Positions 5,972 to 63,235 of a stretch of 64,000 nucleotides of DNA are shown piece after piece (positions within the stretch are counted from its first letter, which is position 1; the number at the start of each line of letters is the position of its first letter). The position numbers and the translations under genes are program-made. The notes below the pieces were generated by a model. That model saw only the letters and a program-made list of their open reading frames with translations, ran no database searches and was not told where the DNA came from. This DNA is from Eledone cirrhosa. Lineage: Eukaryota. The stretch covers positions 17,360,001 through 17,424,000 of the forward strand of contig OZ024748.1 in the NCBI GenBank assembly GCA_964016885.1. The letters run 5' to 3'.

Positions 5972-6166
5972 ATAATTACAACAGTGACATAGACAGGTAC
6001 TCAAGTGGGTTCTGGGCCCTAATTTCTTCAGCCTGTCAATTGGGGCCCAGAACCCAACGAAACTTAAGTACTTATCTATGTCACTGTTGTTATTATTTAT
6101 ACCAAACTCGTCCTATGCACTGAGTGCTCTTACTCTAGAATATTTCCACTTAACTTTTACTTCAGT
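5972..6166. mobile_element. (TA)n-flanked fold-back HHR element
   Basis: The two inverted arms together reconstruct gacagg-CTGAAGA-..ttggg..cccaac-GAAAC-ttaa-GTA-cctgtc; relative at 23516-23625. Confidence 0.7.
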
Positions 6167-6455
6167 ATATATATATATATATAGGAAGGATAAAAGGACG
6201 ATTTATTATTCCTTCATTGCATTTATTGATAGGTGACGCGCGTTTTGCCACTGATCAGCTCAAGGTTCGATCTATATCGATCCTATCCGACTCGACGGAC
6301 CTTCCCAAAATGCTATTAGAAAATGTATAGCTCTATACATCATCACAGAAGTGAACCTAAACATCGAGTGCTCACCCGGGTGAACCTGCAGTAACTCCTA
6401 GTTACACCCCCTGGATATATATATATATATATATATATATATAGATAGATATATG

Positions 6456-6682
6456 AAGGCGTGTGGCTAAGTGGTTAGAGAACTGGATTCGCAATCGTGA
6501 GGTTGTGAGTTCGATTCCTGGACTGGGCAATGCGTTATGTCCTTGAGCAAGACACTTTATTTCACGTTGCTCCTTCTACCTGGAGTTGCGACCGATAGAT
6601 AGTATTAGCAATACGAAAGACCAATGGAATCATTGTTTCCTCGGTCCGATTTGACGAAAGTCGATCGACTAAAAAAAAAAAA
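6456..6682 (+). mobile_element. tRNA-derived CORE-like SINE, family 2
   Basis: A box tggctaagtgg, B box gttcgattcc, gtccttgagcaagacactt; copies at 21860, 26143, 27256, 32810. Confidence 0.85.
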
Positions 6683-6946
6683 TATATATATATATATATA
6701 TATATGTTTGTGTGTGCGCATTAGTTAGGGGTGTAATAATAGTTACAGGCGGCACCACATTTGAAGCACTCAATGCTGTTATTAGGACCGTTTCGTTTGG
6801 TTGTCTTCCAGAGTTACAGCTGTAGTGTGCAGAGAGTAAATAGATTTAAAAGAATCAAAGTTCAGAGTTACAGCATATGTACAAAATTTATTTGCATATT
6901 ACAATTGTATTGATATTTGATCAGCTCAGGGTCCAATCAAGGTGGC

Positions 6947-6977
6947 GGGGCCCGACTCAGTTTCAACCACTCATCAG
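6947..6977 (-). ncRNA. Minimal hammerhead core, 5' stem I lost to (TA)n
   Basis: Reverse complement CTGATGA-gtggtt-GAAAC-tga-GTC. Confidence 0.6.
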
Positions 6978-6987
6978 TATATATATA

Positions 6988-7191
6988 CATCCAGAGTTGA
7001 CATTGCACTCAGTGCTCCTTTGGGAGCCGCTACATGGACACACTAGAAGGGGAAGACCAAGGTTAACGTATGTTGATGCCCTAAGGACAGACACTGGTCT
7101 GTTGGAGACGCAGGACATGGCAGCGATAATGAGGGACAGAGACCGCTGGAGAGAACTCGTCCATGGATCTCGGGAATTTTACCCGCCTTAG
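6988..7191 (+). pseudogene. RTE/RTEX-like LINE ORF C-terminal fragment
   Basis: LLWEPLHG..RRGRPRLTYVDAL..DTGL...M.DRDRWR, a typical RTE-group C-terminus. Confidence 0.75.
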
Positions 7192-7207
7192 ATATATATA
7201 TATATAT

Positions 7208-7465
7208 ATCATCATCATCATCATCATCGTTTAACGTGCATCTTCCATGCTAGCATGGGTTAAACAGTTTTGTTCCATATGATGCAGGATTGGTCGGGAG
7301 ACTGTGTCTCGCTCATACGGAAGTGTCACTGGCAGGTTCTTTTTACAGCTGGTTGCCCTTCCTAACACCAACCACTTTTACAGTGTGGACTGGGACCCTT
7401 TTTACCATGTCTCCTACACGACTCACTCTACAGTGTGGACTAGGTGCTTTTTGACGTGTTGCCTA
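7208..7465 (-). mobile_element. RTE-tail retroelement fragment
   Basis: Similar to 2877-3175. Confidence 0.75.
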
Positions 7466-59607: not shown

Positions 59608-59825
59608 GTAGATTGTCAGAATTGGTAAAGCATCAGATAAAAATGTCCTTGTGATATTTGTTCAGCCTTTTTACATTCTGAATTCAAATCCCACAGAGGT
59701 CAACTTTGTCTTTCATCCTTTCAGAGTTGATTCAATAAAAGTACCAGTCAAATACTGAGGAGGCCAGTTCAATCAACTTTGCCCTCATCCCGTATATGCT
59801 GGCCTTCTACCTGAAGTAGAACTTA
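59608..59825 (+). mobile_element. Diverged Meta-type SINE
   Basis: ttcaaatcccacagaggtcaactttgtctttcatcctttcag...aagtaccag. Confidence 0.7.
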
Positions 59826-60021
59826 GTTTTATTAAAGCCACTATATTGGTATATATAGTTCTGTTTTTATGATAAGTTGTGATTTGAGGGTAAATTTGGC
59901 TATTATTTCTAGTACATTCTCACTCCTCTTCCTTCAAAAGTGCCATGGGAATCCTTTTAGTAAAGTTACTATATGTTTCATGAAGTTAAGCTGAGCAATG
60001 CTTTTGGTCTCCCCAAAACAG

Positions 60022-60910
60022 CCACCATAATCATCTCCACCACCACCACCACCACCATCACCACCACCTCCACCACCACCATCACCACCACCTCCACCAT
60101 CAACGCCTTCACTATCACCTCCACCACCATCATCATCATCATCTCCACCACCACCATCACCACCACCTCCACCACCTTCACTATCACCTCACCACCATCA
60201 TCATCATCTCCACCACCACCACCATCATCACCTCCACCACCACCATTATCATCTCCACCACCACCATCATCACCTCCACCACCACCATCATCACCTCCAC
60301 CACCACCATCATCACCTCCACCACCACCATCATCACCTCCACCACCACCATCACCACCATCACCTCCACCTCCACCATCATCACCACTTCCACCATCACC
60401 ACCACCTCCACCATCACCACCACCACTATCACCACCACCATTATCACCTCCACCACCATCACCTCTACCACCATCATCACCACCACCATCACCACCACCT
60501 CCACCACCACCTCCACCATCACCATCACCACCATCACTATCACCTCCACCACCACCATCACCTCCACCACCAACAACAACATCAACAATAACAACAAAAC
60601 CAAGAACAATCCACACTTCCGCCAATACAACAAGTACAAACACCACAACTACAACAGTTAAATCAATCACAAGATGGAGGATGATGATGATGATGGGAAA
60701 GAAGATGATCAACAACAATAGCATCACTAGCAACATCACAACAACACTAACACCACTAACAACAACAGCATCACTAACAACACTAGCAACAATAACAACA
60801 ACAACACTAACAACAACAACAACAACATCACAGCAACCCGAACACCACTAACAACAATAACAACAGCACCACTAACAACAACAATAACAGCACTACTAAC
60901 AACAACAATT
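60022..60910. repeat. (CAC/CAT)n and (AAC)n low-complexity tract
   Basis: Direct reading. Confidence 0.9.
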
Positions 60911-61456
60911 GTATATTCACTATTGTTTCAATTGTATCATTTGCTATTTATACTATCCTCCTTTCATGAGTGAAATTATTTTGTTCTATCCCTGCTTCGG
61001 GTTAAACTGCCCCCTCTCTATTCACTCAATTCTATTACTAACAAAGCTATATAATCTAATCCATCCAAAAACAATGGTATTTTCACTCTGAGAAATTTCT
61101 AGAAGGTATCAGGCTTCTAGATGGCTCCATTATTCATTTGTCACTCTACAAATTGTTTTATATTATTTCAGAGGAAATTTGAAACATTCCTATAGAGTTT
61201 GTCTTTAACTTCATCTCTTTCCCTTCCATTCACCAGCAGGGATCTTTATTCAACTATTTCTGCATTTTGACCAAACAAACTCCTTCTAAATATAACACAA
61301 TATTAATAATTCAGTTATTTAACTAATATAATAAATACACAAATGCTCATATATATACAGTGTACGTCAATGAAATGTATACATACTTCAGGAAAAGATA
61401 TATATATAGAGATAGATAGATAGATAGATAGATAGATAGATATATAGATAGATAGA

Positions 61457-61540
61457 TACAGCATGTCCCCCAAAAATGCATATACATATTTATTAGAATA
61501 CTGTTGAAGTGTGTAAACATTCTTTGTGGGCATCTTGTAT
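61457..61540. mobile_element. Tc1/mariner-type small MITE
   Basis: Related to 2774-2876; TA-flanked imperfect TIRs. Confidence 0.5.
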
Positions 61541-62119
61541 ATATGTTAACAAAGCTTTTTCGAAGATCGAATTAAGGCACAAGTGTATTAGAATAATGAG
61601 AAAAACTCAATGCAAGGATAGTTGCTAAAGCAGCAAAATGCCGTCAATGACAGCGTTGGGTAAAATCTTACCTTAAAAGACAGAAATAAATGTCTAGAAG
61701 TGTGTTGGTCCAGAGAAGTGGTAGGTAGAGAGGAGGGGGAAGAAAATGGAGAAAATGTGAATGGATGAGACAAGATCACACTAACATCATATTATGTCAT
61801 CAGCCCTCATACCAGAATGTAGTTTCGCACAAATTAAATTAGAGGAGACTACAGATGTATACTTGATAAAACAAATAAATTAGATAAGACAGACAGATAG
61901 ATCAGAGGGAGAGAAGTAGGAAGTGTCCGTTCGACACCAAGTCGCAGCTAGAAAGGATAACAAGACCTAGAGCTGCAGAAGTGGCAGCAAGAGCGATATG
62001 TAGAAGGGGAAGAGAAGACAAGAAGCAGAAATAAGGAGAAGGGATATATATATATCAAAGGTACTCAAAATAGTCTCTTACAATAAAATAGCTCTAGGAA
62101 AGAGATTTTTCTGAGGCGT

Positions 62120-62328
62120 ATATTATAATTGAATATAAAAGAGAGATAAACACAGATATATACATATATGTGTTCAAATCGTAAGGGACCAGATTCATTA
62201 AGGCGAAAAAATACTAACTATGGACAATAGGGTTTGCCAGACTCAATTAGAGAGAGAAAGAGAGAACGATTTGAACACATATATGTATATATCTGTGTTT
62301 ATCTCTCTTTATATTCAATTATAATATA
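62120..62328. repeat. ~62-bp inverted arms in a (TA)n-flanked island
   Basis: 62121-62182 vs 62265-62326. Confidence 0.8.
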
Positions 62329-62342
62329 TATATATATATATA

Positions 62343-63235
62343 TGCAAAAGTTTTATTTAAAATTGTAGGGTTACAACGAGTAAATATTTTATAACTGATA
62401 TAAAAGCACTCAACAGGTTTTGGAGTAGGTTTACGATATTAAACAAATGGAAACTATATTTATAAAACCATATTTATTTCATTATATATATTTCAGGGAT
62501 ACCATATTAAAAATATGGTATGCCTTCCTCAGACAAAATACAATATATAAACCGTTTTATAAATAAATTTAACATACCTAGAACAGTGCAACTTCCATTT
62601 AAAAAGTTGATTTGGTAGTGAAAATGTTGAGGACATTTATATATCGGCTGTTTTTTAACTGTATCTCTCCCACCTCGTATGATAGATATTACTCGTTCTA
62701 CCTCTTTTCTCCCACCACATATATCTCTCTCTACCTCTCTTTATTTATCATATTTCTTTCCGTATCCTTAACACTATAACTAAATAAATAAATAAATAAA
62801 TAATTACAGTACCCCCTTCCCTCCTTAATATCTCATTTGTACCGTGATCATCTGTCTCCAAGCTGCCTATCATTTTTCACTCCCTCAATATATTTCTCTC
62901 TCCCATATCTCTTTCTCTCTATCTCGCTCTGTTGCTTTCTTTGCATACATCTCTTCATCTTCTTCTCTAACTGTCCTTAGCGCTATACACTTTCTTTCTT
63001 CTTCTCTTCTTTTTTTCTTCTTTTCTCTTCGTCCTTCTTTTTTAACTGTCCTCAACATTTTCACTACCAAATCAACTTTTTAAATGGAAGTTGCACCAAA
63101 TTTATTTATAAAACGGTTTATATATTGTATTTTGTCTGAGGAAGGCATACCATATTTTTAATATGGTATCCCTGAAATATATATAATGAAATAAATATGG
63201 TTTTATAAATATAGTTTCCATTTGTTTAATATCGT
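62343..63235. mobile_element. Fold-back HHR element (family of 5155/27049)
   Basis: Arms ~62433-62635 / 63046-63235; cores CTGAGGA at 62526-62532 (-) and 63136-63142 (+); helix II ataccatatt/aatatggtat. Confidence 0.85.

Follow-up and report, generated by a model that had tools for sequence, protein, structure and literature searches.

Twin hairpins ahead of the start codon in Hydra-clade Penelope-like elements of Eledone cirrhosa: a likely docking site for internal reverse transcription

Introduction

The subject of this study is a short hairpin-forming motif carried by Penelope-like elements (PLEs) of the Hydra clade in the genome of Eledone cirrhosa. It was studied in a stretch of 64,000 nucleotides (nt), called the window from here on (assembly GCA_964016885.1, contig OZ024748.1, positions 17,360,001 to 17,424,000, forward strand). 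The PLE tail, the targeting of (TA)n and internal initiation are already known (PMC8557442, PMC11167929), as are the hammerheads of these elements (PMC4209133). The available text of Craig et al. 2021 (PMC8557442) describes PLEs with an optional 3' extension at one end, an inverted 5'-truncated arm, a hammerhead near the 3' end, (TA)n targeting and the Hydra protein motifs, all of which are shared by the elements of E. cirrhosa. Their tail, however, is about 70-105 nt long as against 30-40 in that work. It is bounded by two copies of a hairpin that go unmentioned in the available text, though they are present in its consensi.

In the 2024 in vitro study of Poseidon_Ac (Frangieh et al., PMC11167929), internal initiation was shown, and its available text defines no signal for it. 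The internal start of synthesis is at +111-118, and RNA as far as +172, about 55 nt past the start, is required. Poseidon_Ac has in common with the reading given here two internal starts delimiting the tail, a required RNA 3' of the start, AT-rich targets and a predicted dimer acting on both strands. Unlike Hydra, it belongs to another clade and starts inside its open reading frame (ORF), in an AC-rich loop, with no binding motif defined in that text. A UCUC/GAGA stem was seen by eye in its template at about +126-139, just 3' of the start; it does not have the Hydra architecture and serves as a lead only.

The choice of template by PLEs has been a puzzle for decades, and so have the reasons for their optional tail and inverted arms. 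Among the reverse transcriptases (RTs) of elements without long terminal repeats (LTRs), those of R2 and L2/UnaL2 recognise stem-loops in the 3' untranslated region (UTR). Like the Hydra hairpin, these are small cis structures of RNA that give template specificity and are common to autonomous and non-autonomous partners. They lie 5' of initiation and are copied, whereas the Hydra hairpin would lie 3' of initiation, uncopied and paired. In telomerase, the RNA-binding domain of TERT binds elements of the telomerase RNA (CR4/5, three-way junction). Here the shared feature would be a TERT-related RT placed on an internal template by an uncopied RNA structure; the likeness is one of predicted protein fold only, and telomerase differs in its repeat synthesis, of which Hydra has none.

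Non-LTR retrozymes (bioRxiv 10.64898/2026.07.22.740005) are ORF-less tandem units mobilised by PLEs, like a 600-nt family of the window (site 23721, below), and no recognition signal is described for them in the available text. A literature search gave no description of the hairpin or of a two-hairpin rule; subscription journals were largely outside its coverage, so a prior mention is possible. The hairpin is a real, clade-wide cis element, new in detail, inside a known class of elements.

Twin hairpins and the ends of insertions

A twin motif able to form a hairpin lies between the hammerhead and the start codon, and the ends of insertions are found a few bases 5' of one copy or the other. 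It is likely (probability roughly 0.7) to be the site in the RNA at which the RT docks for an internal start of complementary DNA (cDNA). The order of parts in the tandem masters is hammerhead, short end, hairpin 1, long end, hairpin 2 and ATG. Two hairpins stand ahead of the ATG in families A, B, C, D and N291, as seen in tandem copies that run into the ORF.

Copies of family A end at two places about 90 nt apart. When TA junctions were mapped on eight tandem references, with the expectation taken from the positions of TA dinucleotides, 248 of 259 ends were found 0-10 nt 5' of a hairpin (53 expected) in loci of the same genome, a query-biased set. An unbiased set was made of the window and a held-out 600 kb of the same genome outside it (60 stretches of 10 kb, 20 neighbouring and 40 scattered). 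Here, 60 of 64 ends lay 0-10 nt 5' of a hairpin as compared to 13 expected, and 30 of the 38 ends beyond hairpin 1 were exactly at -3 from hairpin 2. Families A and B had yielded the rule before any inspection of C, D and N291. In tandem copies of family D, the long end is likewise at -3 from hairpin 2, and in a tandem copy of N291 (L324), hairpin 2 comes three nt past the long end and is followed by a Hydra ORF. The short ends of families F6122, F18618 and F57740 lie about 4-10 nt ahead of hairpin 1.

The two hairpins are 78-105 nt apart in this genome, and the distance of 45-68 nt from the GAG word to TA arises because the hairpin spacing minus the hairpin length is a constant of each family. 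The relevant fixed distance is the one from the insertion end to the next hairpin (-3 nt), which is absent from the inserted copy. In the unbiased set, inverted insertions comprised 16 of one long and one short arm, one long+long, one short+short and four unclassified; in query-selected loci, 41 of 45 were long+short, with 26 more unclassified.

Genome-wide, the hairpin followed by ATGGA gave 1498 matches against 22 in a reversed control, some of these ATGGA not being start codons. The pattern with two hairpins (1602 against 139 in the control) was not used as a count, being inflated by a satellite. A satellite at G000:C1:14,234,975-14,243,331 (L325-L350) has 58-nt monomers made of the N291 hairpin 1 and a spacer over at least 8 kb, and is apparently a tandem repeat derived from a PLE tail. 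A coding explanation of the motif was rejected, as both copies are upstream of the ATG and none of 44 coding-sequence (CDS) controls had the hairpin.

The conserved word and its limits

The original prediction had taken the word GAG(Y)(R)CT, at a fixed distance from the (TA)n junction in unrelated families, for a shared cis signal. Such a signal, probably one for the RT, is supported, but the 7-mer is not its unit. The word is the 3' arm of a predicted bulged hairpin, RCUC-Y(n)R-UH-GAGY-RCYN, whose pairs covary.

All 13 of the listed 7-mers were confirmed in position and strand. The distance to TA, measured from the start of the word to the first (TA)3 run, had been put at 45-68 nt; it was 44-68 nt for 12 of them (49 nt at 6366) and 72 nt for 57740, giving a span of 44-72 nt. 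The sites 23364 and 47230 terminate on short, imperfect TA runs. Two carriers had been overlooked, GAGCGCT at 23721 (-) and 43941 (-), which are 76 and 73 nt from TA, respectively. The distance is fixed inside each family, but cluster medians range over 36-82 nt between families.

Positional enrichment, proposed as a check, was observed in TA flanks. In 142 complex 100-nt flanks of TA tracts in the window, ten GAGYRCT words lie at 40-75 nt, where 1000 dinucleotide shuffles gave 0.58 (maximum 4), an enrichment of about 17-fold. It was replicated in the held-out 600 kb, where 44 of 58 GAGYRCT matches are 30-80 nt from a tract (653 flanks) and 15 of 415 flank clusters have the word at 35-80 nt. 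In an unguided scan of gapped 5-mers over the 415 cluster representatives, the motif was not top-ranked (TTG..CT was 13th).

The 7-mer alone is unspecific, with 41 strand-hits of GAGYRCY within the window, including a coding match at 52383 and copies of a repeat resembling a short interspersed nuclear element (SINE). This SINE-like repeat (4658-4920, 22783-23116, 26575-26905 and 47670-47985) is inserted at TA, has an internal GAGTGCT 176-236 nt from TA and is unrelated to the hairpin. Its GAG matches were set aside, along with those in hammerhead arms (5996, -) and the matches that the near-palindrome produces on the reverse strand. Of the 13 window sites, 5 have a strict hammerhead core no more than 260 nt away on the same strand; at the others it is variant or truncated.

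Architecture and covariation of the hairpin

From 5' to 3', the motif consists of RCTC, an inner stem of variable length, a loop, a 2-nt bulge on the 3' side (TT in 32, TC in 14, TA in six and other letters in five) and GAGY. Of 112 GAGYNCY sites close to a repeat tract, 57 have the hairpin, as against 46 of 418 distant ones. Its outer pair covaries: A goes with GAGT in 11 clusters and G with GAGC in four, with no discordant cluster (Fisher p=7e-4, a value which overstates independence because the families share ancestry). The test used 22 multi-copy clusters picked by the 3' side only, of which seven had no hairpin or a non-purine outer base. For the inner pairs, complementarity at the first three positions in 82 distinct hairpins was 77/82, 56/76 and 42/54, where permutation means were 57, 30 and 22 and none of 2000 permutations reached the observed counts.

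The hairpin in Hydra elements of other organisms

Relatives with about 40% protein identity are encoded by 77 metagenome loci. In 46 of them the match reached the N-terminus, and 44 of these were analysed, two having almost no upstream DNA. The hairpin was found within 200 nt before the ORF in 32 of the 44 and twice in 20, some of the contigs being mutually related; the controls gave 0 (CDS), 4 (reverse complement) and 0.39 (shuffles). The spacing is about 55-83 nt. The common form is GCTC..TT-GAGC-ACTN, which makes the ACTC/GAGT of E. cirrhosa a compensatory change, and a third pair, TCTC/GAGA, was seen by eye in two elements. Six ends terminated by TA have a tandem counterpart, and they lie at -2, -3, -3, -8, -11 and, in one case, at a variant hairpin. 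In one metagenome element (L351:440-480), hairpin 2 is separated from the long end by a (TA)n run, as though the insertion of a copy had taken place directly ahead of its own hairpin 2.

Among the published Hydra consensi viewed by eye in the supplement of PMC8557442, the hairpin is clear in Hydra-2_Amil and Hydra-2_Ajap, occurs twice at the 5' start of Hydra-1_Ajap, is degenerate in Hydra-1_Amil and Hydra-1_Crog and is not clear in Hydra-1_Obim. The consensi with the hairpin derive from coral and sea cucumber. For five 9-mers sought in the available supplement, four of seven matches were inside Hydra UTRs, words broken across lines being missed.

Identity of the carriers

By their sequence, the carriers are the 3' ends of PLEs, in all likelihood of the Hydra clade, inserted in (TA)n. 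They have hammerhead cores, inverted arms and (TA)n on either side. A tandem UTR linked to a Hydra ORF was found for the families of 62405, 27180, 6366 and 43724; none was found for 6122, 6765, 18618, 23364, the 42572 group and 57740, and 19755 is tied to Hydra family C through weak similarity only. Since the four linked families all encode Hydra-clade proteins, common descent is the most likely reason for the shared motif. The families are thus unrelated only in the sense that their flanks have diverged past recognition. The 13 sites fall into about ten families (27180 and 62405 are 66% identical; 42572, 47230 and 43155 are 58-80% identical) and do not collapse into one, though a single clade contains all those for which a link to an ORF could be made.

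Assignment to Hydra follows the motif criteria of Craig et al. and by-eye likeness to published proteins. The elements have a single ORF and are shorter than about 3 kb, with the RT followed by a C-terminal GIY-YIG endonuclease, which was identified through its VY..YIG motif; Pfam gave no match to the endonuclease fragments. Family A has open frames of up to 713-714 amino acids and 75,021 first-look candidates in this genome of 3.0 Gb, whose repeat content and protocadherin-like ORFs point to an octopus-like animal. R35-x-R37-W38 and D115-K116-T117, corresponding to the RWK and DKT motifs, are kept in at least 85% of 102 aligned proteins, and in families A, B1, C, E and N291 the residue after RW is K or R. 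The CxCx5C linker, CxxC and CxH are represented by the conserved C564/C566/C572, C662/C665 and C690/H692. In family A, the VY and YIG strands have no cysteine pair between them; the endonuclease of this family is without CCHH, as in Hydra. The (TA)n insertion and the hammerhead near the 3' end also agree with this clade. Partial tandems, an inverted 5' copy and a one-sided tail are as in other endonuclease-bearing (EN+) PLEs, whose tail length of 30-40 bp is not found here.

The AlphaFold model of the Hydra protein has a predicted local distance difference test (pLDDT) score of 92.9, and its top three Foldseek matches are all TERTs. The predicted fold matches TERT and other RTs across residues 1-480. 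VIA-align gives TERT and a group II intron RT equal rank (Z 16.7; root mean square deviation 4.3 over 307 and 3.9 over 280), and the TERT alignments alone extend back to residues 1-5. As the N-terminus is inside the TERT alignments, its conserved SxKNIP and RxRW residues are a candidate binding surface in the model. A single-sequence model of the N-terminal 196 residues reached a pLDDT of 37. No relative was found in viral contigs.

Proposed mechanism and other explanations

Since the hairpin that fixes an end lies 3' of that end and is not part of the insertion, its action must be on the template or on the donor. In the proposed mechanism, a transcript would run from the pseudo-LTR through both hairpins, one of which would be bound by the RT. 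The GIY-YIG domain would nick (TA)n, the DNA 3' end would be positioned on the UA/AU just upstream of the stem, and synthesis would proceed away from the hairpin, so that the hairpin in use is never copied. A start at hairpin 2 would give a copy whose tail contains hairpin 1, and with it the word that was noticed originally, while a start at hairpin 1 would give a tailless copy. A copy with no hairpin downstream would be a dead end, and this would account for the dependence on tandem masters. By analogy, the need of Poseidon for RNA beyond its start site fits a docking site for the RT. More tentatively, two copies of the protein, one per hairpin, may prime both strands of the target and give the long+short inverted structure; this pairing, seen in most of the classifiable inverted insertions, would be expected if one RNA primes both strands from two hairpins, and a predicted PLE dimer would suit it.

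Several points weigh against the docking of the RT on an RNA hairpin. The role is a prediction from sequence. The covariation counts are not independent, the families being related. Of 17 hairpins, the sense strand folds better in eight and the antisense in eight, and inner stems have 13 G-T as against nine A-C, a balance that favours neither RNA nor the cDNA or DNA strand. Half of the hairpins folded alone (7 of 14) are weak (0 to -4 kcal/mol), which may suggest stabilisation by a protein. Hairpin 2 frequently has one inner pair and is degenerate in the 23721 family. The strict pattern failed in 12 of the 44 metagenome elements, about five of which are variants by eye and six apparently lack an intact 5' end. 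Short ends are scattered from -1 to -10. A search of 30 loci each for F6122, F18618, F42572 and F57740 brought up no tandem copy that includes hairpin 2, and hairpin 2 of these families is, therefore, only predicted. Lastly, a second type of TA-targeting PLE in the same genome, which we take from its motifs to be Neptune-like, has a hammerhead and two 3' ends about 50 nt apart, and the Hydra hairpin was not present in the five copies viewed (L063, L078, L111, L222 and L062). The signal thus looks clade-specific. This second type has a different, possibly hairpin-forming sequence after its short end.

The hairpin may instead mark the RNA's 3' end, made through cleavage by a nuclease of the host or element or through upstream termination, from which target-primed reverse transcription would then begin. 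The same genomic ends are predicted, yet this is unlikely, for the sole PLE assayed in vitro makes an internal start on RNA that is unprocessed and depends on sequence 3' of that start, and the long+short pairing within an insertion fits one RNA with both hairpins better than RNA cut beforehand. Furthermore, the family-B UTR had no ribozyme match in an Rfam covariance scan (best E=1.9), which likewise did not detect the hammerhead of the same UTR. In an Rfam scan of the window, the first 150 of 374 matches were all of low complexity and below threshold. A little less likely still is that the motif is read as DNA, in duplex or as an extruded or cDNA hairpin, by the GIY-YIG endonuclease nicking its own pseudo-LTR or adjoining cDNA. 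The strand comparison gave RNA no advantage, GAG-YR-CTC is nearly palindromic, and the Penelope endonuclease of D. virilis is reported to need the tail for recognition (available text of PMC11167929, citing Pyatkov 2004). At new (TA)n sites, however, the end-fixing hairpin is missing from the target as well as from the inserted DNA, and the 2-nt 3' bulge is kept although stem length and loop vary.

It is very improbable that the motif is a promoter element, either with the flanking (TA)n as a TATA box, as had been suggested, or internal to the pseudo-LTR. The position of both copies in the 5' UTR, upstream of the ATG, would agree with a promoter. In the tandem masters and most metagenome elements, however, hairpin 2 stands before the ATG with no adjoining (TA)n, which is in any case the target site and whose spacing varies over 36-82 nt between families; both the base-pair covariation and the -3 rule would be left unexplained. 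We give just as little credence to a solely translational operator or enhancer bound by the element protein, with ends that follow nearby AT-rich sequence. In families A, B and C, about 18-25 nt do indeed separate hairpin 2 from the ATG that follows, and a TA dinucleotide occurs at most 10 nt upstream of 74 of the 82 hairpins; but the end zones hold 12-26% of the TA dinucleotides of the UTR and 94-96% of the ends, in N291 the distance to the ATG is about 70 nt, and a non-coding tandem family retains the hairpin. A secondary translational role is possible.

With RT docking as the preferred reading, the result is a defined candidate of 20-30 nt, a start rule (about 3 nt upstream) and a twin-priming prediction, which can be tested by the published assay. 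The hairpin can also serve in annotation as a marker of Hydra elements and their non-autonomous partners, which this genome contains in very large numbers, and it bears on the link between PLEs and telomerase and on tools for scarless RNA-templated insertion. As a speculative extension, which we hold with less than even confidence, the two hairpins may form an RNA code: a dimeric, telomerase-related RT would use its N-terminal region, taken to be homologous to part of the TERT RNA-binding domain, to bind two uncopied hairpins and would prime both strands 3 nt upstream. If so, tail, inverted arms and dependence on tandem masters would all follow from one mechanism, a pre-telomerase mode of positioning an internal template would still be alive, and any RNA tagged with the 25-nt hairpin could be inserted minus its tag.

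Features of the window

In family F6122, hairpin 1 with RCYN is at 6106-6129 (+); the long end is at the TA tract at 6166 and the inverted short arm ends at the tract 5955-5974. The ORF-linked family D is represented by the 3' arm of hairpin 1 at 6366-6373 (+), the 5' arm being lost in this copy. Hairpin 1 at 6764-6814 (-) has a long loop; its family is not linked to an ORF and a single copy was seen. A compact hammerhead core with a 5-bp stem II at 9411-9435 (+) belongs to a further TA-flanked family, with an inverted relative near 42290-42310. For F18618 (hairpin 1 at 18617-18645, -), the short ends of relatives are about 4-8 nt 5' of the hairpin. The tail of the insertion with hairpin 1 at 19754-19797 (-) is 75-78% similar to family C, and its inverted arms are 19797-19970 and 20115-20288.

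Hairpin 1 at 23363-23385 (-) is an ATTC/GAGT wobble variant that RNAfold did not fold alone; a minimal hammerhead core lies upstream at 23428-23450 (-). The young, ORF-less family at 23655-23860 (-) has hairpin 1 (GAGCGCT) at 23720-23749 (-). Its copies (L225/L226) are 98-99% identical, with the 600-nt tandem unit and no canonical hammerhead core by eye, like a retrozyme-type hitch-hiker. Next to it, at 23891-25510, a 310-nt unit occurs twice and then 3.2 times inverted, at 100% identity and with TA tracts on both sides; this is either a very recent amplification or an assembly feature. Hairpin 1 of the ORF-linked family B2 is at 27164-27187 (+), and the hammerhead core of this family-B element is at 27057-27098 (+), with an inverted copy at 26976 (-).

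Hairpins 1 of the GCTC/GAGC type lie at 42555-42579 (+), with a hammerhead core upstream at 42387-42434 (+), and at 43154-43178 (-), where the inverted short arm has a hammerhead-like core at 43249-43285 (+) and ends at the TA tract 43338. The same group has hairpin 1 at 47213-47237 (+), with inverted arms at 47117-47150 and 47175-47208. The abundant family N291 has hairpin 1 at 43723-43750 (-) and a short arm ending at the tract 43839; a G-U-rich hairpin 1 (GAGCGCT) is at 43940-43968 (-). Coding remnants are a 5'-truncated Hydra-clade ORF of family A at 49868-50620 (+), comprising thumb, linker and GIY-YIG endonuclease, and an endonuclease fragment of Hydra type, probably of family D, at 52169-52504 (-).

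In F57740, hairpin 1 is at 57739-57768 (-), the short ends of relatives lie at -5, and a hammerhead core at 57839-57881 (-) has an inverted copy at 58316 (+). Hairpin 1 of the ORF-linked family B1 is at 62404-62426 (-), with its long end at the TA tract 62324-62343 and the hammerhead core of the long arm at 62491-62532 (-). The inverted short arm of this insertion (63098-63236, +; hammerhead 63136-63177) ends 5 nt before the expected start of hairpin 1. A Hydra-associated tail at 63800-63934 (+) (also L060) has an imperfect stem and, 53 nt before TA, the word in a variant form, GAGTTCTT. Fold-back insertions beside TA runs in which no GAG motif was seen (42650-43008, 57914-58282, 62138-62310 and 63500-63800) are probably short+short or 5'-inverted PLE fragments. 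Outside the window, one of the randomly drawn stretches (L058) contains ORFs resembling clustered protocadherins.

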